Virus record (IMG/VR): IMGVR_UViG_3300038406_000088
Coordinates: 1 to 58,127 of that record
From: a virus
Length of the DNA stretch: 58,127 nt
Reading direction: 5' to 3' (one strand)
Shown here: positions 29,269 through 50,072 of the stretch, one piece after another
How positions within the stretch are numbered: the stretch's first letter is position 1
Layout of the letters: each line of letters begins with the position of its first letter
Made by a program: the position numbers and the translations under genes
The notes under the pieces: model-generated
Database searches by the model: none
What the model was told of the DNA's origin: nothing
The model's input: only the letters and a program-made list of their open reading frames with translations

Positions 29269-31734
29269 ATGGCTGGTCCGCTCGATGAAGCGTTTGTCGA
29301 GATCACTGCCGAGCTTGACACTCGGCAACTACAGCGTGCCGCGCGGTCCGCCAGCCGCACTGTTGAGCGGTCGCTCACACGAGGTGTTGACCGCGCCGAG
29401 AGGTCGATTGCACGGGGCAGCGGGCGAATCGGGTCACAGGCCGGTGAAGATTTCGGCGACGGGTTCGGTTCCGGACTACGCGACACGTTGTCGTCTATTG
29501 CTGACATTAAGCTTCCGGTACCAGCTTTTGCCGCATTGGGCCTCGCACTCTCCGCCGCAGCGGCATCCGCCGTGCAGTTCGCAGCCGCGTTGGCACCTGC
29601 GGTAGGCATCGTGGCGGCGTTGCCGTCCGGCATCGGCGTGCTATCCGCAGGGCTGTCTACGCTCAATGTAGCGACGCTCGGAGTAGGGGAAGCATTCGAG
29701 GCAGCGGCCACGGGCAGCGCCGAAGAGTTTCAAGAAGCCATCGAGGATATGGCACCTGCGGTGCAGGATGCCGCTCAGGCCATCCGGGACATGATGCCGG
29801 AACTTGAAGAGCTACGCGACACCGTACAGGATGCGTTCTTTCAGGACTTTGATGATGTTCTGAACTCGCTTGCGGAGACGCTGCTTGGTCCGGTCACCAC
29901 AGGCATGACCGCAGTCGCCACCGAAGCCAACGGCGTCATTACCGCCCTTGCGGGCGTGGCAACCTCGGCGCAGGGTATCGAGTTCGTCAATCAGAGCTTT
30001 GACATCATGGCGACGATCCTTGCCCAGATGCAGGAGCCACTGACGGCGCTATTCGCCGCGTTGCTGAACGTCGGTACCGCGCTCAATGCGGCGTTCGGGG
30101 ATACCGCAGGGCAGGGCATCGCCGACGTGACAACACGGTTCGCGGAGTTCTTGAACCAAGCCGCCGACTCTGGGCAAGCCGTAGCGTGGGTGAGCGACGC
30201 TCTCGCCGTGTTCCAGGCGATCGGCGATATCCTCTCCCCGATCATCGGTATCATCGGGTCGATCGGTGCCGCTGCGCAGGCAACCGGCGGCAACATCCTC
30301 GGTGTGTTCGGGCAGGCCCTACAGGTCTTCGATGACTTTCTCGCATCGGCGCAAGGGCAGTCGGCGCTGATCTCGATCTTCGAGGCGCTGAACCAGGTGG
30401 GAGCGGCGTTCGGTACCGTCCTGGCGAACATCGCCCCGGCATTGCCCCCGCTTTTCAGCGGTTTGTCTAGTATTCTCAGTGCGGTTATCCCCCTCCTGGG
30501 ACCTTTGTCTAAATTGGTCGGTTCTGTCCTAGGTGCGCTTGCGCCCATTCTTGGCGCGGTTGCATCTGCCATTCAGCCGCTCATCGGACCTTTGACAAAA
30601 GTGCTTGATCTGCTTGGACCGATCCTTGTTGACGCGATTACGGCGCTTATGCCGATTATCGAGCTACTTGCCGATTTGCTCGGCGGTGTGCTAGGTGTCG
30701 CAATTGAGCTAGTTGCATCCGTTTTGGAGGCACTAGCCCCGGTTATCTCTGCTGTACTCGAAGCGCTGCAGCCTTTGATCGAGTCACTAGAACCGCTATT
30801 TCAGGTGCTCGGCGTTGTCGCAGATCTGATCGGTACTGTCCTTGGCCCGATCATTCAGGTACTCGGCGCTGGCTTGCTGTGGCTTGTAGATAACGTGATT
30901 ATCCCGTTTGTGATCCCCGTGATTGAACTGCTGATCAACCTACTTGCGGCTGGCCTCGGAGCAACGATTCAATGGGTAGTTCAGCAGTTCCAGGGGGCAG
31001 GCGAAGGACTAGCGGTTATCTTCAACTTCATCCGCGAGGCCGGGCAGGTGCAAGTTGATGCCATGATTGCCGCTTGGCGTGTGTTGAGTACGTCTTTCCA
31101 AGTGGCGTGGAGCGTTATCAACGCTCGGGTGTTCACCCCGCTCAAAAACGGGATCAACACGGTTAAAAGCGTCGTTTCGGCTGCTCTGTCTGGTATCCGG
31201 TCGAGTTGGGACAGCTTCGTCAGCTTCATCAAGGGCATCCCGGGCAAGATCAGCGGCGCACTCAGCAGCATGTTCTCACCTCTGGCGACGGGGTTCAAAT
31301 CCGCTATCAACTCAGTCATTCGCGGGTGGAACAGCCTGTCGTTCTCGGTCCCCTCGGTCGACCTCGGACCGCTCGGCAGCGTAGGCGGCTTCACTGTCTC
31401 GACACCGAACATCCCGCTACTTGCCTCTGGCGCACTGGCGACGGGGCCGACCCTGGCCATGGTCGGCGAAGGCCGGTTCAATGAGGCGATCCTTCCGCTA
31501 GGCGACCCGCGCGTAGACAGCTTGCTTGCTTCGGCATTGAGCCGTGCAGGAGCCGGTAACCAGGACGCGCGCGGCGGTGGAGACACGATCAATGCCACAG
31601 GTGTCAGCGGTGACAATTACTTCGTAGTGAAGATCGGCGATCGGGAGATTACTGATATCGTTGTGGAGAAGCAGAACGAGATGAACCGCAACCAACTGCG
31701 CAGGGCTCGCGCGGGTACCGGAAGGCTCGCATAA
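29269..31734 (+). CDS. tape measure protein
   Basis: 821 aa, Ala/Gly/Leu-rich with internal periodic repeats, following the frameshifted chaperones. Confidence 0.85.
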   Translation: MAGPLDEAFVEITAELDTRQLQRAARSASRTVERSLTRGVDRAERSIARGSGRIGSQAGEDFGDGFGSGLRDTLSSIADIKLPVPAFAALGLALSAAAASAVQFAAALAPAVGIVAALPSGIGVLSAGLSTLNVATLGVGEAFEAAATGSAEEFQEAIEDMAPAVQDAAQAIRDMMPELEELRDTVQDAFFQDFDDVLNSLAETLLGPVTTGMTAVATEANGVITALAGVATSAQGIEFVNQSFDIMATILAQMQEPLTALFAALLNVGTALNAAFGDTAGQGIADVTTRFAEFLNQAADSGQAVAWVSDALAVFQAIGDILSPIIGIIGSIGAAAQATGGNILGVFGQALQVFDDFLASAQGQSALISIFEALNQVGAAFGTVLANIAPALPPLFSGLSSILSAVIPLLGPLSKLVGSVLGALAPILGAVASAIQPLIGPLTKVLDLLGPILVDAITALMPIIELLADLLGGVLGVAIELVASVLEALAPVISAVLEALQPLIESLEPLFQVLGVVADLIGTVLGPIIQVLGAGLLWLVDNVIIPFVIPVIELLINLLAAGLGATIQWVVQQFQGAGEGLAVIFNFIREAGQVQVDAMIAAWRVLSTSFQVAWSVINARVFTPLKNGINTVKSVVSAALSGIRSSWDSFVSFIKGIPGKISGALSSMFSPLATGFKSAINSVIRGWNSLSFSVPSVDLGPLGSVGGFTVSTPNIPLLASGALATGPTLAMVGEGRFNEAILPLGDPRVDSLLASALSRAGAGNQDARGGGDTINATGVSGDNYFVVKIGDREITDIVVEKQNEMNRNQLRRARAGTGRLA

Positions 31735-37867: not shown

Positions 37868-39690
37868 CGGTCATTCCTCCTGTTGAACGCTGCCTCAAGT
37901 TTATCTCTGCGGTATCCTCGCACCTTCTCACCGTTGCCCATTGCGAAGGCGTTCGGCTCAACCTCGACGCCGTGCACGCGCATACGCACGTGCACCTCAG
38001 TGTCAGCGACACCGAGCGCGATAGCGAGCCGAGCTGTTGACACACCTTGCAGCCCCTCGGACAGTTCAAGCGCGACCACAAGCGCATCTTTCGCGTCGAC
38101 CACGGGGGCGAGCGTCTTCGCCCGACGCCACGGCGAACGCGGTTCAAGCGCCTTCACGTGCTCTTTCGTCATGTGCCACACGCGGGTAGGGTCCGGTGTC
38201 CGGTCCTCACCTTGCACGCGAACCAGCGACCACCCGCCCTTGAGGAGGTCTTCTGCGTGCCATCCCTTAGCGGTGGCGTCCTCGCCAAGCACGTTGCGAG
38301 CCTCGGTGGGGGACGATACCGCCATGCACACCTGCGAGGTCAGCTGAGCCGAGATAGCGGAGTCGAGACCCTTACCGGGGCCGGTCACTGTGGGTTTCTG
38401 CGTGGCCCACCAGAGCGGAATCTCTGCCGATCGTGCGCGTCGAGCGATCGAACGCAGTCCGGTCACGGCGTCGGGCACTTCCGACATGAGTTCTGCACCC
38501 TCATCGACAACAACAACGATGCGCGGACGTTCTGGCGTAGGCTCCCAGGTGTCGAGGCTTTCGGTACGCATGATCGCCTCACGCTCTTTCATCTCGGTCA
38601 CTAGATCGCCAATGACCGACTGGATACCGTCTGCCTCGGATTCGACGCGAGCGACATGTGACCACAGCGCGCCTTCTACTTTCAGGTCGATGATGACGAT
38701 CATGGTGTTCGGGAGCGCGAGCGCTTCCGCCATGAGCACACGCAACGCCACCGACTTGCCAGCACCGGACATGCCCGCGACACTGAGCCGGTCGGTCACG
38801 TCGACACTGACGACTTCGCCCGTGTCCGCGTTGAGTCCCAGTCCCTTTCGTTCCGGTGACCAGGTGAGGTCAAGGTCCCGCACGCGAGTGCGGATGCGAA
38901 GGACAGCCCGGTCTGCGGTACCGCCCGGCTTGACTTGCGTCTTGACCTCATCAGGAACCGCGAGCAGTGCTCGCAGTTGATCGACCTGGGTGTCCAGCTT
39001 TGCTGGCGTCCACAGTCCCGCGAACTCCATGGGGATCAAGATGCCGGACTCATCGATGACCGGAGCACCGGGGAACACCTCGTGCAGCTTGCGATCGGCG
39101 GCGTTGGCCTCCCAGGTGTGCACCCGATCGATGATCGCGGATTCGTGCCTGTTGGGCTTGAGACCCGCCTCAGCGTGTTTCCGGGAGAACAGGCGCGTCT
39201 TCTCTTCGACGGGGGCGAGCGTGGTCACCGACTGCACCGGCTCCGCGTCGTCGCGGTGCGTCCAGCCCAGCCACGCCAGGTATCCGTACGCAGCAGGCCA
39301 TGCGAGGAGCGCACCGGGGTTGCCTTCGATGAGCATCCACGGGGGAACGATGAGCGCGCTCGCAGGGACAGCGAGCGTGAGCGCGCATCGGAGCGCGCGC
39401 GTTCCGAATGCGCGCGTGCTCACCTCAATGTCGGTGAGCGCGTTCGCGCGCGCGGGAGGCGCGCTGTGCGCGCGCCTGTTCTTCGACATGCGCGCGTGCG
39501 CGCGCATCGCTCGTTGATGCTGAGCGCTGAGCGCGCGCGCATCGCGCTCCTTGATGTGCGCCTCGATGCCTTCCGCGCGCGTCCATGCGCGCGCATCTTC
39601 GGCGAGCGCGCGCGCACCCCGCAGGGTGTAACCCCACGAGGTGCGCGCCATGCGCGCGTATGCGCGCTCGTTGTTCTCTTCGGCGCTCAT
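37864..39690 (-). CDS. FtsK/SpoIIIE/TraB-like DNA translocase
   Basis: Walker A GMSGAGKS and Walker B VVVVDEGAEL. N-terminal hydrophobic segment and an Arg/Ala-rich N-terminus. Confidence 0.8.
   Translation of the reverse strand: MSAEENNERAYARMARTSWGYTLRGARALAEDARAWTRAEGIEAHIKERDARALSAQHQRAMRAHARMSKNRRAHSAPPARANALTDIEVSTRAFGTRALRCALTLAVPASALIVPPWMLIEGNPGALLAWPAAYGYLAWLGWTHRDDAEPVQSVTTLAPVEEKTRLFSRKHAEAGLKPNRHESAIIDRVHTWEANAADRKLHEVFPGAPVIDESGILIPMEFAGLWTPAKLDTQVDQLRALLAVPDEVKTQVKPGGTADRAVLRIRTRVRDLDLTWSPERKGLGLNADTGEVVSVDVTDRLSVAGMSGAGKSVALRVLMAEALALPNTMIVIIDLKVEGALWSHVARVESEADGIQSVIGDLVTEMKEREAIMRTESLDTWEPTPERPRIVVVVDEGAELMSEVPDAVTGLRSIARRARSAEIPLWWATQKPTVTGPGKGLDSAISAQLTSQVCMAVSSPTEARNVLGEDATAKGWHAEDLLKGGWSLVRVQGEDRTPDPTRVWHMTKEHVKALEPRSPWRRAKTLAPVVDAKDALVVALELSEGLQGVSTARLAIALGVADTEVHVRMRVHGVEVEPNAFAMGNGEKVRGYRRDKLEAAFNRRNDR
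39381..39668. repeat. alternating-GC motif patch 1 (about 15 runs containing GCGCGC)
   Basis: Hand count. Includes the palindrome ATGCGCGCGCAT and a purine/pyrimidine alternation longer than 20 nt at 39487-39507. Confidence 0.85.
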
Positions 39691-40401: not shown

Positions 40402-41643
40402 CTAGTACCCGAGCGCCTTGCGCACCGGGGTGAGCCACTTGCCCGCGTGTCCGATGGACTTCTCGGTGGCAGCAGCCAGCCACTTCTGCGTAGGGAGCTT
40501 GCCCCGCTCCGCCACGAACGCAGTCATGCGGACCTTGACATCCTCGGGGATGGTTTCCTGTGCGGTGATCGCCTCGATCATGGCGTCGTTGCCATGCGCG
40601 CGCGTGGCAGCCTCGTGCGCGCTCACCGTCTCCGATGCGCGCGTGTCCTCGGTGAGTGCGCGCGCATCGTCAGGAACATGCGCGCTCACTTCGAGTGCGC
40701 GCGCGGGAGGCGCGCTCACCGGTCGCACGGCGCGCGCGTTGTGCGTGCGCGCGCTCATCGATGCGCGCTCGTTCCAAGGGTTCATGTGCGCGACCGCTTC
40801 GGGAGCGAGCGCGCGCGCACCGACATAGCGCGCGGCGATGCGCGTCTGAATGCGCGCGCGCACTTCCGGCGTGAGGATGCCGAGCGCATCCGCGCGCGCC
40901 CATGCGCGATCGTATGCGCGCTTGTAGAACGCGCGCGTGATCTTGGGTCCGACGTTCGCGGCGTACGCGCAATTGACGATCTGCGTGATGAGTCGTTCGG
41001 TAAGCACCGTGTTCGCGTCCTGCGACGTAGCCTTGCCACGCTTCATACGCCACCAGGTGACCAGAGCGGACGGCTTGTGCGGACGCCCGAAGGTGATGAC
41101 CACGTGCCACGCGACAGCCGCCAGGAGCGGCCACAGCGCGAAGATAGGGCTACCTCCACCCCACCAGGCGATCACTCCCATGAGTGAGGCCATCATCCAA
41201 ACACCGGCTTCGTACCGGTTGAACCCTTCGCCCCTGGTCATGTGCCGAAGGGACAGCGCGCCCAGGATCGCAAGCCACGCCTCGAAGACGATCACAGCGG
41301 AGATAGCCGCATCAACGGAGGTGAGCCCAATGTGCTGGATAGCAGTGATCGTGGCGTGCGCGCTCAAGTTGGTGGCCGCGAGCGCGACGAGCGCGACCGC
41401 GCTCATGAGCGTGATGCGCAGACGCGCGTCTGCGCGCGCGCCTGATGCGCGCGCATCGGCCTTGCGTTGCGCGCGCGCTTCCATGTCGGGGCGCTTGATC
41501 TCTCCCCAAATGCGCGCGCGTTCCCGTGCGCGCTCGCGCGCGCCCTGAGAGGTGCGCCAGAGGATGAGCGCGAGCATGAGCGCGCCGAGCGCGCACGCGC
41601 TCATGAGTGCGCCTGCTGGTGTTGACGTGAAATCGTTCATCAT
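40402..41643 (-). CDS. polytopic membrane protein (DUF2637-like?) with Arg/Ala-rich termini
   Basis: The central section has about 5 hydrophobic helices. Start chosen at MMNDF after a GAAGGA ribosome-binding site. The family assignment is from memory only. Confidence 0.5.
   Translation of the reverse strand: MMNDFTSTPAGALMSACALGALMLALILWRTSQGARERARERARIWGEIKRPDMEARAQRKADARASGARADARLRITLMSAVALVALAATNLSAHATITAIQHIGLTSVDAAISAVIVFEAWLAILGALSLRHMTRGEGFNRYEAGVWMMASLMGVIAWWGGGSPIFALWPLLAAVAWHVVITFGRPHKPSALVTWWRMKRGKATSQDANTVLTERLITQIVNCAYAANVGPKITRAFYKRAYDRAWARADALGILTPEVRARIQTRIAARYVGARALAPEAVAHMNPWNERASMSARTHNARAVRPVSAPPARALEVSAHVPDDARALTEDTRASETVSAHEAATRAHGNDAMIEAITAQETIPEDVKVRMTAFVAERGKLPTQKWLAAATEKSIGHAGKWLTPVRKALGY
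40594..40937. repeat. alternating-GC motif patch 2 (about 16 runs containing GCGCGC)
   Basis: Hand count, with recurring (A/G)TGCGCGC context. Confidence 0.85.
41355..41605. repeat. alternating-GC motif patch 3 (about 8 runs containing GCGCGC)
   Basis: Hand count. Confidence 0.8.
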
Positions 41644-41683
41644 GAGTCCTTCATCTTGGGGGACTCCCACCATAGCACGAAAG

Positions 41684-41712
41684 AAAGCGGGCACCCAAGG
41701 GGTACCCGCTTT
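41684..41712 (-). terminator. intrinsic terminator-like hairpin
   Basis: The minus strand reads AAAGCGGGTACC-cctt-GGGTGCCCGCTTT followed by CTTTCTTTCG. Confidence 0.6.
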
Positions 41713-41955
41713 AAACGAGCGGCGGGAGTCGAACCCGCTTTGATACTCAACAGGACACTAGCCGATACCCTGCCTTCAAACTGCCCTTGCCGATCGGACG
41801 GCTCAGGATTCCGCCGGTACTCATCTCGTGTGGTGAACACCCGACCCATTACGATCGTCGTCCACACCCCGGAAGAGATACCTTCCGAGGTCCTGTACCC
41901 CGCAAGCGTAAACGCTCAATAACGTTCCCTACACGGTGCTGACCGGTACCTCATT
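41713..41955 (-). ncRNA. structured RNA with a tRNA-like T-arm (ncRNA or attenuating leader)
   Basis: A promoter lies upstream and a terminator downstream. GCGGG-TTCGACT-CCCGC T-arm at 41722-41738. No credible ORF. Confidence 0.45.
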
Positions 41956-41961
41956 GTCCTA

Positions 41962-41990
41962 AGCCTAACAGGTGTCCCCGATGCTGTCAA
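41962..41990 (-). promoter_or_regulatory. consensus-like promoter
   Basis: The minus strand reads TTGACA-N17-TAGGCT. Confidence 0.6.
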
Positions 41991-42005
41991 CACCGGGGTA
42001 ACCCT

Positions 42006-42025
42006 GAACGTTTCCGCAGGTCAGA
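42006..42025 (+). repeat. 20-nt exact repeat GAACGTTTCCGCAGGTCAGA (copy B)
   Basis: Identical to 28590-28609. Spans the stop codon of the gene at 42021-42584. Confidence 0.9.
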
Positions 42026-47580: not shown

Positions 47581-49384
47581 GCTTTTCCGCCCATCGCTTA
47601 GCTGTTGCCCCGCCCGCGGTAAGTGGGATGGACAACAGGCTGTCATCATTCATAACGTCTTTCATGGTCGCGATAACGTCTGAGACCTCGCTGTCGGGCA
47701 CATCTGCGATCACTTCGTCGTGCACCACCAGCGCAAGATAATCCCCGATGCCTGCTGCGTCCAACTGTAGGAGCGCGCCCTTCATGATCTCAGCAGCAAC
47801 GCCTTGGATCTGGTGGTTCACGAGCTGGTAGAACAGGTTCGGGTTGTGTTGTTGGAACCTTCGCCCGGTGAGCGGAGACTTCACGTACCCCACGCCATCC
47901 TCGCGGTACCGCTGCGAGGCGAGACGCTGAATCGTCTGCTGATGTGCGGGCACACCCGCATACGTGCCGTTGAAGTCAGCGGCAAGCTTCTCGATCTCGG
48001 CGAGCGGTCGCTTCGTGGTCGTCGCCAGCTTGTCGTTGCCCGCTCCGTACAGCGTGGCGTAGGTGTAGCTCTTCGTAAGGTTGCGCTGCGGACTCTTCTT
48101 GGTGATCGTCTCGTCCTGGTAGATCTTTTTCGTGAGCGCCACGAAAAAGTCTTCATCTGAGAGAAATGCCTCCCTAAGTCCTGGATCTCCCGAAAAGGAC
48201 GCCATTACCCTTAGCTCGATTTGATCGTAATCGAACAGGACAAACGTGCTATCAGGCGACGCAACGATGCAGTTTCGAGCGATCTTGCTCAGCGGGTCCG
48301 ACTCGTCCACTCGGGTGAGCTGTTGCAGGTTCGGGGATGAACTGCTCATACGGGCAGTTTTCACCCCAAACGCGCCTGCGGACTGCTCTTTGTACCCGAG
48401 TGTATTTATTGAAGTATGAATCCTCCCATCGAAGGATGAATACTCCAAAAACCTCTTAAGGTACGTCGAGTTGATCTTTTCCGCCTGCTTGCGTTGCTGC
48501 AAGAGCGCTGCCAACGGGTGGTCGATGCCCTCAAGCGCGAACTTGTCCAGCGACCACGCGCCGCCGTCCGTCCGCTTCCACAGCTTCACGCCGTCCGCAA
48601 TGAAGAGGTCGGTCACCTGCGTAGCCGAGCCGAGATCAATGCCGAACTCATCGAAGCCGCGCTTCGTGAGGTCGACGTGCAGTGCGTCTAGCTCGGTACG
48701 CTTCGCCTGGGTGTACTCGCGGTCGCAGGCTACGCCCTTCATCTCCATCTTGTCGGCCAGCCAGCCAGTTGCGAGTTCGAGGTCATAAGCCCTGGGTGCG
48801 ATAGCCATTACCGTGGGTGCATGATGCTCCCACAGCAACGCGGTAATCACGCAATCGAGTGCTGCATATTGCCAATACGCCGCACACGGACCGGTGGCAC
48901 TGATGGGTACCGTCGCCCACGTATACCCCCCAGAGTGCATCAAGGAGTCCAAAGAACCTTGCATTGCCGCCGCTCGCGGGTCAATGTGCTTCGCAGACTG
49001 CTGCTTGAGCCCGATCGACACGGACGGGTCAACGATGTGACACAGCATCATCGTGTCATCGGTCAGGTGCGGGGGCAGGTGGATGTCGTGGTTTCGGAGC
49101 ATCGCGAGATCGAAACGAACATTGTGGCCTACGAACCTCCCCTTGCGCGACCACCGGTCAATGATCTCCTCGACCAGTCCCTTCCAGCGGTCAATCGGGA
49201 TAGCCCAGCCGTCGCTAGCGGTCCCAAACTGCACGAGTCTTACCTTATCGCGCAATTTGTCAATTCCGGTCGATTCGCAGTCGACCGCCAAGCGCTCGCA
49301 GGTGAGTCCCGAAAGCCAATCGAGGCACGCCGCAACATCTTCGTACGTCTCCACCAAATGGAGACTAACCCCCTCAAGAGCCAT
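47570..49384 (-). CDS. polA: DNA polymerase I (family A) with 3'-5' exonuclease domain
   Basis: ExoI VDCESTG, motif A DYDQIELRV, motif B RNLTKSYTYATLYG, motif C VHDEV. Confidence 0.9.
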   Translation of the reverse strand: MALEGVSLHLVETYEDVAACLDWLSGLTCERLAVDCESTGIDKLRDKVRLVQFGTASDGWAIPIDRWKGLVEEIIDRWSRKGRFVGHNVRFDLAMLRNHDIHLPPHLTDDTMMLCHIVDPSVSIGLKQQSAKHIDPRAAAMQGSLDSLMHSGGYTWATVPISATGPCAAYWQYAALDCVITALLWEHHAPTVMAIAPRAYDLELATGWLADKMEMKGVACDREYTQAKRTELDALHVDLTKRGFDEFGIDLGSATQVTDLFIADGVKLWKRTDGGAWSLDKFALEGIDHPLAALLQQRKQAEKINSTYLKRFLEYSSFDGRIHTSINTLGYKEQSAGAFGVKTARMSSSSPNLQQLTRVDESDPLSKIARNCIVASPDSTFVLFDYDQIELRVMASFSGDPGLREAFLSDEDFFVALTKKIYQDETITKKSPQRNLTKSYTYATLYGAGNDKLATTTKRPLAEIEKLAADFNGTYAGVPAHQQTIQRLASQRYREDGVGYVKSPLTGRRFQQHNPNLFYQLVNHQIQGVAAEIMKGALLQLDAAGIGDYLALVVHDEVIADVPDSEVSDVIATMKDVMNDDSLLSIPLTAGGATAKRWAEKRDI

Positions 49385-50072
49385 CTTTATCCCTCATCTT
49401 TCGTCGTTGTCGTCCTCTGCGCTGTCCTTCATTCTTGCATGTACGACATGCTCGGTGTCCGTAAGTGTTGTAGATGGTGTTTTCTTCTGTGTACGCGTGA
49501 TTATTGGGGCAGTGAGTGATTTTTGAAGCACTCAGAGCTGCATGCAATCCAGCGATGCCTCTTCTGGTGTTTTCACCAGTCGTTACCGGTTCGAGATGAT
49601 CGGGGTTTACACAGGACTTGTTCTTGCACAAATGATCTATCACCAAGGATTCTTGGATCGGCCCTACTAGATTTTCCCACGCAAAACGGTGCGCATACCA
49701 CCATGTGTAGTGCACCCGGAATTTTCCATACCCGCGCCGGTCGCGCGTTCCAACCCATTCCCAGCAATCACCATCGGCATCAACATGTGCCCAAAAACGT
49801 TCTTCCGGTGATCCGTCGATGCGCTTGCGTACTTGGTACTCTGGGTTTCCGTATCTGTGCCACCTCTGATAGTGCTTTGAGCACCAGCCTCGCGTAGCCT
49901 TCTTGCTTTCGCATCCTTCAATCGAGCATCTGTTATCGTTGAGCACGACGGACACCTCTATAACTCGCTGTTCGTCCACGTCCTCGGCGGGTGCAACCGC
50001 GCGAGGACTCTTCTTTACATAGTATACATCAGTCCGGAGCTCCGAAGAGCCCCGCACCCTAGCTGGATACAA
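49374..50072 (-). CDS. HNH homing endonuclease
   Basis: CSIEGC..RGWCSKHYQRWHRYGNP, CWEWVG..GYG and IDHLCKNKSCVNPDHLEPVT motifs. Low GC. Its stop overlaps the polA start by 11 nt. Confidence 0.85.
   Translation of the reverse strand: MYPARVRGSSELRTDVYYVKKSPRAVAPAEDVDEQRVIEVSVVLNDNRCSIEGCESKKATRGWCSKHYQRWHRYGNPEYQVRKRIDGSPEERFWAHVDADGDCWEWVGTRDRRGYGKFRVHYTWWYAHRFAWENLVGPIQESLVIDHLCKNKSCVNPDHLEPVTTGENTRRGIAGLHAALSASKITHCPNNHAYTEENTIYNTYGHRACRTCKNEGQRRGRQRRKMRDKDGS

Follow-up and report, generated by a model that had tools for sequence, protein, structure and literature searches.

The locus described here raises the question of what a transcription unit can be for when it has a promoter, a terminator and a canonical tRNA T-arm and contains neither a protein gene nor a recognizable tRNA gene. 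The window, by which is meant the whole stretch of 58,127 nucleotides (nt) that was analysed (IMG/VR virus record IMGVR_UViG_3300038406_000088, positions 1 to 58,127), represents most of an uncultivated phage genome of ~60 kb. The unit occupies a 377-nt gap separating a helix-turn-helix (HTH)-like gene from the gene of a 413-amino-acid membrane protein, and it is read on the minus strand. To judge from the comparison with related phages, this locus is very probably a minimal tRNA-array operon, in the most reduced form known in the clade, and between promoter and terminator it holds a structured RNA (module 1) followed by a tRNA-like element (module 2).

The array site in related phages

Relatives were collected from IMG/VR by searching with the two flanking proteins, which gave 32 and 39 loci, and a profile search added more distant ones; the comparison set comprises ~36 related contigs of soil phages. 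In BLAST comparisons the site is framed by two blocks. The left block (42100-41955, the end of the HTH-like gene and the promoter) is conserved in nearly all relatives and the right block (41712-41601, the terminator, the leader and the start of the membrane-protein gene) in all close relatives, while the middle varies genome by genome. Most relatives have the promoter, then a small open reading frame (ORF) and then tRNA genes. ARAGORN reports 0-5 tRNAs at the site in the close relatives, several of them odd ('tRNA-???', an anticodon UUA, genes of 95 nt), and in the distant relatives 21-23 tRNAs within 3 kb, or 27-30 when longer flanks are taken. Position, promoter and terminator of the unit in the window are the same as those of the tRNA clusters of the relatives, which establishes its homology to tRNA arrays and the conservation of both signals. 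From the -35 hexamer to the terminator it measures 318 nt, the shortest among 17 distinct arrays, the others spanning 399-2234 nt.

The initial annotation, made without database searches, had proposed a promoter-to-terminator unit without an ORF that encodes a tRNA-like structured RNA. A tRNA-like element inside a real, conserved and non-coding unit of this kind is supported by the relatives, but the unit had not been recognized as the tRNA-array locus of the clade in its most reduced form. The sole minus-strand ORF of the interval (41867-41640, GTG start, 75 amino acids) is not regarded as a gene because it spans module junctions whose two sides do not adjoin in relatives and because it runs through the terminator, and the unit is non-coding.

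Array promoter

The promoter consists of the following elements, identified by direct reading (the -35 hexamer) and by conservation in the relatives (both):

41985-41990, minus strand: -35 hexamer TTGACA
41962-41967, minus strand: -10 hexamer TAGGCT (TAnnnT type), after a spacer of 17 nt

The coordinates of this near-consensus promoter (TTGACA-N17-TAGGCT, 41990-41962), which had been noticed from the letters alone, were confirmed. The pattern TTGACA-N17-TANNNT occurs once in the 58-kb window when both strands are counted; the number expected from shuffled sequences is 0.13, and 13 of 100 shuffles held at least one match. Among 19 distinct relatives the -35 hexamer is TTGACA, TTGACG or TTGACT, the 17-nt spacer is kept, and the -10 hexamer is TAGGCT, TAGGGT, TAGGTT, TAGGAT, TAGAGT, TATGGT or TATTGT, all of them of the form TAnnnT. 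This is the form of the -10 element of the principal sigma factor in actinobacteria. The promoter was absent from the output of a generic promoter scan because TAGGCT agrees with TATAAT at only three of six positions. The BLAST homology between the window and the promoter block of the relatives stops at 41955/41956, where a different module begins, and transcription is predicted to start at ~41955, 1-3 nt before the first helix of module 1.

A palindrome, GGGGTACCCC (GGGTTACCCC in the window), adjoins the -35 hexamer at 42003-42012 on the minus strand and is found in the same place in relatives. The sequence GGUACC is met again in the loop of P1 in module 1, in the 5' end of module 2 and, in the window, in the stem of the terminator. 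The palindrome and the GGUACC motif could be an operator for the protein of the upstream HTH-like gene, or a motif for RNA-RNA contacts. The direct repeat ATGAG(G)TACCGG pointed out in the initial annotation is real, and each RNA module has one of its two copies (41954-41943 and 41824-41814) at the 5' end.

Module 1, a four-hairpin RNA

The consensus fold of four close copies gives these features, all on the minus strand:

41833-41953: module 1, a structured RNA of four hairpins
41953-41951 pairing with 41942-41940: P1, with the loop GGUACCGG
41936-41921 pairing with 41916-41899: P2, a long irregular hairpin
41891-41882 pairing with 41875-41866: P3, next to P4
41865-41853 pairing with 41846-41833: P4, next to P3

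Module 1 is ~120 nt long in the window and ~120-150 nt in the family. Covariance models built from close copies (R1, R2 and R3), used together with a core model of 69 positions, detect a single copy in the window and further ones in 13-14 of the ~36 related contigs, four of which are distant tRNA-rich genomes, and members are present in both subclades. The copy in the window scores 84-151 bits with R1-R3, itself being among the sequences from which the models were built.

The pairing of P3 and P4 is kept while their sequences change. In a first alignment of eight distinct sequences 175 of 175 cells were paired, and an alignment of 11 sequences fitted to the model has 98% of its cells paired, with compensatory changes in 24 of 40 pairs. 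When the core was aligned by MAFFT without gaps and without fitting to any structure, 96.4% of the cells were paired and 16 of 28 pairs, including the kissing helix described below, were compensatory, as compared with 36-44% paired in slid controls. Unpaired features are conserved as well, namely GGACC before P3, GGGU closing P3, and an A bulge and a GG bulge in P4; an invariant G-U pair is also present. The copy in the window has all of these family traits (P3 and P4 with GGACC...GGGU, the A and GG bulges, the covarying stems), and every one of its 22 P3 and P4 stem pairs is intact.

P3 and P4 have six-base loops that are complementary to each other and covary, as in CGUUAC/GUAACG, CGUUGC/GUAACG, CAUCAC/GUGAUG and CGUAAC/GUUACG. 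Nine of the 14 family members have all 6 base pairs (bp), whereas mismatched loop partners average 3 bp, which indicates that the two loops form an intramolecular 6-bp kissing helix. No Rfam family matches any member of module 1, in the window or in the relatives. Taken together, the covariation argues that module 1 is a real structured RNA belonging to a conserved family that has not been annotated. Several stable hairpins had been noted in this interval before; the hairpins are real, but that they make up a separate conserved and covarying RNA had been missed.

Module 1 is also punctuated by tRNAs. In all ten relatives with a full-length match a tRNA or tRNA-like gene ends within a few bases 5' of it. 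In eight of 11 loci the next such gene begins within a few bases 3' of it and is tRNA-Val, tRNA-Met, tRNA-Lys, tRNA-Ala or an oversized tRNA-like element. The place of the upstream tRNA is taken in the window by the promoter and the predicted start, and module 2 follows module 1 at the very next base.

In two relatives (L012 2161-2215 and L019 2717-2773) module 1 is not directly followed by a tRNA; a conserved 50-nt element closed by GGGGGAC/GUGCCCC stands there instead and may be a truncated tRNA-like hairpin.

Module 2, a tRNA-like element

41714-41825, minus strand: module 2, a tRNA-like element of 112 nt (consensus fold with the copy in relative L009)
41722-41738, minus strand: canonical T-arm GCGGG-UUCGACU-CCCGC inside module 2 (direct reading)

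The T-arm was reported in the initial annotation and is found at exactly these positions. The T-loop 11-mer GGTTCRANTCC occurs twice in the window, where 0.24 occurrences are expected. The second one, GGTTCAAATCC, lies at 31292-31302 on the plus strand inside the ORF 29269-31734 of the structural block and is taken as a chance match. Module 2 is closed by a helix of 7 bp between GAUGAGU (41825-41819) and GCUCGUU (41720-41714), on which the fold and a search for T-arm plus acceptor agree, and on its 3' side it directly adjoins the terminator.

The only other copy of module 2 is in IMGVR_UViG_3300030742_000024 (L009 2826-2932) and is 92% identical; pattern scans of IMG/VR returned only that contig, and a metagenome scan gave 15 chance matches and no homologous one. 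Its closing helix reads GACGGGC/GCUCGUC, with four of seven pairs differing from those in the window by one-sided changes compatible with wobble pairing. The hairpin GGCAGGG/UCCUGUU shows two further changes of this type, and changes elsewhere are stem-neutral. All six helix substitutions between the two copies thus keep the pairing, in a comparison of two sequences that differ by transitions only, and such pair-preserving changes are suggestive at best of the proposed fold.

Two of the programs for known RNAs that had been recommended with the initial annotation, ARAGORN and Infernal/Rfam, find no known RNA family. In the whole window ARAGORN reports no tRNA or transfer-messenger RNA (tmRNA) with its defaults, none in intron mode and nothing credible at lowered thresholds. 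For the region of the unit Rfam gives nothing at gathering thresholds and only chance matches at E <= 10, none of them to tRNA (RF00005), tmRNA, YrlA or T-box models. The initial annotation was also right that no canonical cloverleaf can be drawn, ARAGORN finding none and the 5' partner of the acceptor-like strand being 112 nt away. Module 2 has the T-arm and the 3' acceptor strand of a tRNA and lacks the full cloverleaf. In global alignments with 242 distinct tRNAs of the clade it scores no better than shuffled controls and shows no similarity beyond the T-arm, and no kinship to it is visible in the last tRNA of the distant arrays (Cys-GCA). Module 2 is probably a non-decoding tRNA-like element, possibly a pseudo-tRNA and probably a remnant, whose minihelix of acceptor and T-arm could serve RNase P.

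Oversized tRNA-like genes are found in several relatives. One of 127 nt (L009 2637-2765, also in L014 and L021) has an acceptor of 7 perfect bp, GGGUGUG/CACACCC, and contains three motifs resembling a T-loop, at spacings of 34 and 51 nt. The intron mode of ARAGORN calls it, with default score, a tRNA-Arg(CCG) with an insert of 45 nt, and in L009 and L014 it stands directly 3' of module 1. Others of 87 and 95 nt (L031 ~2575-2661, L032 2525-2611, L010 2711-2805 and L032 2681-2775) have good acceptors and T-arms, with extra hairpins replacing the normal D-arm or anticodon region. A whole series of such expanded tRNA-like RNAs seems to be present in the clade.

Terminator and downstream leader

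41676-41712, minus strand: intrinsic terminator closing the array, with the hairpin 41712-41684 and flanking A-tract and U-tract (fold and relatives)
41641-41677, minus strand: conserved leader of the membrane-protein/FtsK operon (near-invariance in 20 relatives)
41677-41669, minus strand: TG-n-TATGGT, an extended -10-like element 26 nt 5' of the start codon of the membrane-protein gene
41652-41647, minus strand: ribosome-binding site GAAGGA
41643-41641, minus strand: start codon ATG of the membrane-protein gene

The terminator-like hairpin of the initial annotation (41684-41712) is borne out both by its stability and by its relatives. Its arms (41712-41700 and 41696-41684) are 13 nt long with one G-U pair, enclose a loop of 3 nt and are followed by CUUUCG; the free energy is -23.2 kcal/mol (z = -6.2 as compared with shuffles). 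The base of the hairpin, AAAGCGGG...CCCGCUUU, is invariant across 20 relatives. The five upper pairs occur there in ten distinct versions, nine of which pair fully through compensatory exchanges of C-G to A-U and U-A to C-G. A generic terminator scan did not list the hairpin because its U-tract is interrupted (UUUCUUUCG). With a stable GC-rich hairpin, a U-tract and a conserved structure, termination is predicted at this site.

The 45 nt 3' of the terminator are almost unchanged in the 20 relatives, the hexamer being TATGGT, or TACAGT in two of them, and the distant subclade has TATGAT at the same offset in the leader. The membrane-protein/FtsK operon probably has an extended -10 promoter of its own at 41677-41669.

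A processing model and its main rival

With moderate confidence we favour as the whole explanation a minimal tRNA-array operon whose RNAs are processed as proposed here and are still relevant in this genome. Transcription would start at the host-type promoter at ~41955 and end at the terminator (41712-41684), giving a primary transcript of ~270 nt without an ORF. The relatives have small ORFs and 0-30 tRNA genes between promoter and terminator, and in the window a deletion or recombination would have fused the promoter directly to module 1. The transcript would then be matured by the tRNA-processing machinery of the host; since tRNA or tRNA-like genes abut module 1, excision by these enzymes is the simplest reading. 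A cut by RNase P at the 5' end of the tRNA-like element would create the 3' end of module 1, and its 5' end would come from 3' processing of the upstream tRNA in the relatives and from the transcription start in the window. The tRNA-like element would be a non-decoding remnant, retained or tolerated as a processing handle, and the terminator would insulate the array from the membrane-protein/FtsK operon. The family structure of module 1 and its punctuation by tRNAs are established by the alignments and positions given above; that the unit is transcribed, that its RNA is processed in these steps and that either module has a function are inferences.

A further claim can be put forward only tentatively, and we hold it to be doubtful: that module 1 represents a new class of small structured RNAs of phages, marked by a GGUACC hairpin loop and a covarying 6-bp kissing helix, and that it is excised by RNase P and the tRNA 3'-end enzymes of the host and has a function of its own in infection, the array having been pared down to promoter, RNA, processing handle and terminator. 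If this were true, the oversized tRNA-like elements of the clade (87-127 nt) would be kept as processing or decoy modules and not as decoders.

Several observations weigh against the favoured explanation. The copy of module 1 in the window lacks the kissing complementarity (GUAUCU opposite GUAAUG, at most 3 contiguous pairs of 6), as do the copies of the L012 type, and module 1 is absent from ~60% of related arrays and hence dispensable. Module 2 is known from two genomes only and its structure is a model. Its fold is no more stable than shuffled sequences (z = -0.11), the T-arm is missing from the minimum-free-energy fold, the closing helix contains three G-U pairs, and one extra nucleotide stands between the T-stem and this helix. 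Moreover, there is no cultured relative. In phage and plasmid collections the region has no DNA match, and the neighbouring membrane protein and module 1 of a distant relative are likewise without a match. The lost kissing, the poor fold of module 2 and the dispensability of module 1 jointly fit a unit that is decaying here.

A pairing of the P1 loop with the P3 loop is possible in the window (GGUAC with GUAUC, 5 bp). It was considered as a substitute for the lost P3-P4 kissing and is too weak to be claimed.

Simple decay is therefore the main rival, although we consider it rather unlikely. It holds that the locus is a pure relic, the remnant of a deleted tRNA array that is still transcribed, with neither module functional in this genome and the T-arm as a trace of a tRNA gene that has been lost. 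In favour of it, no other array is as short as this one, which has no canonical tRNA, and the missing loop complementarity of module 1, the weak, G-U-rich closing helix and the poor cloverleaf of module 2 agree with it. Other close relatives have tRNA-free or degenerate arrays ('tRNA-???'), and most relatives do without module 1. Nevertheless the stems of P3 and P4 are unbroken in the window (22 of 22 pairs), the fusion sets module 1 only a few nucleotides from the predicted start and puts the tRNA-like element exactly at the position of the tRNA in the relatives, and the helix substitutions between the copies of module 2 are all pair-preserving.

Less probable explanations

It is very unlikely that module 2 is a genuine, unusual decoding tRNA, expanded or with an intron-like insert, that is aminoacylated and used in translation. 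The canonical T-arm and the 7-bp closing helix would suit such a tRNA, and at its 80% threshold ARAGORN draws a cloverleaf of 79 nt with U33, a purine at position 37 and the anticodon AGU ('Thr-AGU') in the window and AGC ('Ala-AGC') in L009. Precedents could be seen in the oversized tRNA-like genes of relatives (87, 93-95 and 127 nt), among them the one called tRNA-Arg with a 45-nt insert. However, this low-threshold cloverleaf is weak, having two acceptor mismatches, a D-stem made up entirely of G-U pairs and an acceptor other than the conserved closing helix, and the anticodon is not the same in the two copies. Neither the default nor the intron mode of ARAGORN gives a match, Rfam gives no tRNA at E <= 10, and the absence of similarity to the 242 clade tRNAs beyond the T-arm also speaks against it. 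No splicing system for small introns is known in bacteria.

The suggestion in the initial annotation of a terminator-controlled leader, in which an attenuator or riboswitch would govern read-through into the membrane-protein/FtsK operon, has equally little to recommend it and is highly improbable. The terminator does lie 40 nt 5' of the start codon, and AAAGCGGG is duplicated (in the 5' strand of the T-arm and the 5' arm of the terminator), as is CCCGC, so that 5 bp could form between the 3' strand of the T-arm and the 5' arm of the terminator. But the content upstream of the terminator, where the putative sensor would lie, is replaced wholesale (0-30 tRNAs) while the terminator and leader are nearly identical, and no riboswitch or T-box model matches. 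The terminator, at -23 kcal/mol, far outweighs the 5-bp alternative. Because of this wholesale replacement, and because the conserved TGnTAnnnT downstream suggests an independent promoter, an attenuator or riboswitch is very unlikely, and the terminator is read here as closing the array rather than sensing. An antiterminator formed through the duplicated AAAGCGGG was rejected on energetics and for want of conservation.

Another possibility raised in the initial annotation, that the segment with the T-arm is what remains of an attP core taken over from the 3' end of a tRNA gene of the host, is extremely unlikely. In a scan of a genome collection the 23-mer GCGGGTTCGACTCCCGCCGCTCG, which covers the T-arm and the acceptor strand, matches the 3' parts of tRNAs in 40 genomes exactly. 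These include the tRNA-Cys (GCA) of many Nocardia, which are actinobacteria, and this counts in favour of the attP reading. The same 23-mer is, however, found in unrelated tRNAs of unrelated phyla (Leu-TAA in alphaproteobacteria and Aquificota, Gly in Candidatus Saccharibacteria with CCC and in Natronosporangium with TCC). The identity stops before the last acceptor base, where cellular tRNAs have C and then A, T or C (mostly followed by CCA) and the window has TTTAA. The match is best taken as convergence on a common tRNA 3' sequence and not as a specific attB. As the initial annotation had itself remarked, no integrase is present: Pfam-type scans found no integrase or recombinase among the large ORFs of the window, which carries its own set of replication genes. 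The attP reading falls because the match is generic, no integrase was found and the site is a tRNA array in relatives.

Finally, it is scarcely credible that module 2 belongs to the Y-RNA-like (YrlA) RNAs or represents the tRNA-like domain of a tmRNA, since apart from the combination of a T-arm with a long-range closing helix it has no Rfam match at E <= 10, no tmRNA call by ARAGORN at the 80% threshold, no tag-peptide ORF and no Ro/TROVE match among the ORFs scanned (Pfam scans of 20 ORFs, the small ORFs in part).

Relation to known systems

Phage tRNA arrays, as far as the cited accounts of mycobacteriophages and other viruses, with the clusters of T4 and T5, describe them, consist of one co-oriented cluster of tRNA genes under one promoter and vary strongly between relatives (PMC5966550, PMC6409571). 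The roles proposed for them in one such account are the supply of codons or the evasion of defences that target tRNAs (PMC10264068). The locus in the window shares this genomic logic, and relatives hold 27-30 tRNAs at exactly this site, but its own version differs in having no canonical tRNA, with a non-tRNA structured RNA and one tRNA-like element left.

The closest functional analogues of module 1, and perhaps of module 2, are RNAC and RNAD of T4, small non-tRNA RNAs co-transcribed with the phage tRNA cluster whose role is unexplained (PMC3014915). Kinship in sequence or structure is not expected; module 1 has an architecture of its own, with four hairpins, the conserved GGUACC loop and the P3-P4 kissing loops. 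A tRNA or tRNA-like fold directly after an RNA lets RNase P set the 3' end of that RNA in MALAT1/mascRNA and in the tRNA punctuation of mitochondria. Module 1 resembles these in abutting the 5' end of a tRNA or tRNA-like gene, in eight of 11 loci and in the window, but those systems are eukaryotic or organellar and processing in the phage unit is deduced from position. Weak Rfam matches to mascRNA in relatives reflect only the minihelix of acceptor and T-arm.

Module 2 can be compared with pseudo-tRNAs or tRNA-like genes, for which the report on tRNA-Other of Bacillus cereus supplies an example (PMC3399842). As is proposed here for module 2, these are derived from tRNAs, have a partial cloverleaf and do not decode; module 2 differs in being 112 nt long and in showing no detectable homology to clade tRNAs outside the T-arm. 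YrlA and other Y RNAs and the tmRNA domain also have a T-arm and a long-range helix closing a larger RNA, but module 2 is without a model match, a partner protein (among the ORFs scanned) or a tag ORF. GOLLD and ROOL are structured RNAs of unexplained function that lie near tRNA genes in phage genomes, measure 500-800 nt and are in Rfam. Module 1 shares the location beside tRNA genes and differs from them in its length of ~120-150 nt and in having no Rfam match.

It is usual to regard a phage tRNA array as a list of tRNAs, and the series from 0 to 30 tRNAs at one locus reveals in addition a conserved, covarying RNA that is not a tRNA. It also suggests that an 'array' free of tRNAs can persist as a transcription unit. 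This unannotated family of covarying, tRNA-punctuated kissing-loop RNAs is a more interesting result than the tRNA-like element that prompted the analysis. Should module 1 prove functional, a new family would join the very few small RNAs known from phage tRNA regions, among which RNAC and RNAD of T4 have gone unexplained for decades. If the processing model is true, bacterial viruses would provide an example of tRNA-like elements used as punctuation in RNA processing. If the unit is only decaying, it offers a clean snapshot of the loss of a tRNA array. The riboswitch, attP, Y-RNA and tmRNA readings are set aside under either outcome.

Genome setting

The neighbours of the unit and the other recognizable genes of the window are:

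42584-42021, minus strand: HTH-like gene, upstream neighbour of the unit
41643-40402, minus strand: gene of the 413-amino-acid membrane protein, downstream neighbour of the unit
~9.8-37 kb, plus strand: structural genes (terminase, portal, major head, Mu-F-like, tail fibre)
~37.8-50 kb, leftward: replication and host-takeover block (FtsK/SpoIIIE-like, DUF669 single-stranded DNA-binding protein, Sak4-like, PD-(D/E)XK exonuclease, SNF2 helicase, family-A DNA polymerase, HNH endonuclease)
53.9-57.7 kb: primase-polymerase

The only match to cultured phages is that of PolA, with ~33-36% amino acid identity to phages of Micrococcus, Microbacterium, Arthrobacter and Gordonia. The virus is apparently an actinophage-like lytic phage.

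Other observations on the arrays

GCGCGC-rich runs (ATGAGCGCGC-like) are present in the window at 41510-41620, in the 5' part of the membrane-protein gene, and at 39445-39667, near the end of the FtsK gene. Distant relatives have such runs between the last tRNA and the terminator (e.g. L028 ~2890-2960). They produce spurious Rfam matches to microRNAs and internal ribosome entry sites. In another distant array ARAGORN calls a permuted tmRNA (L158 4245-4799) that overlaps the array genes for tRNA-Ala and tRNA-Cys, and this call is probably a false positive assembled from parts of tRNAs.

The anticodon UUA is called by ARAGORN ('tRNA-Stop') in four close relatives (L001 2677-2750, L005 485-558, L018 2678-2751 and L020 2677-2750), and a tRNA-SeC(UCA) is called in a distant one (L158 4029-4102). 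The UUA and UCA tRNAs of these arrays are possible stop-codon suppressors.

A spacer of 438 nt inside a distant tRNA array (L022 1254-1691) is an ORF that resembles an HNH homing endonuclease when its translation is read by eye. The HNH gene of the window (49374-50072, minus strand) adjoins the DNA polymerase gene. The cassette-like reshuffling of the arrays could be the work of homing endonucleases.

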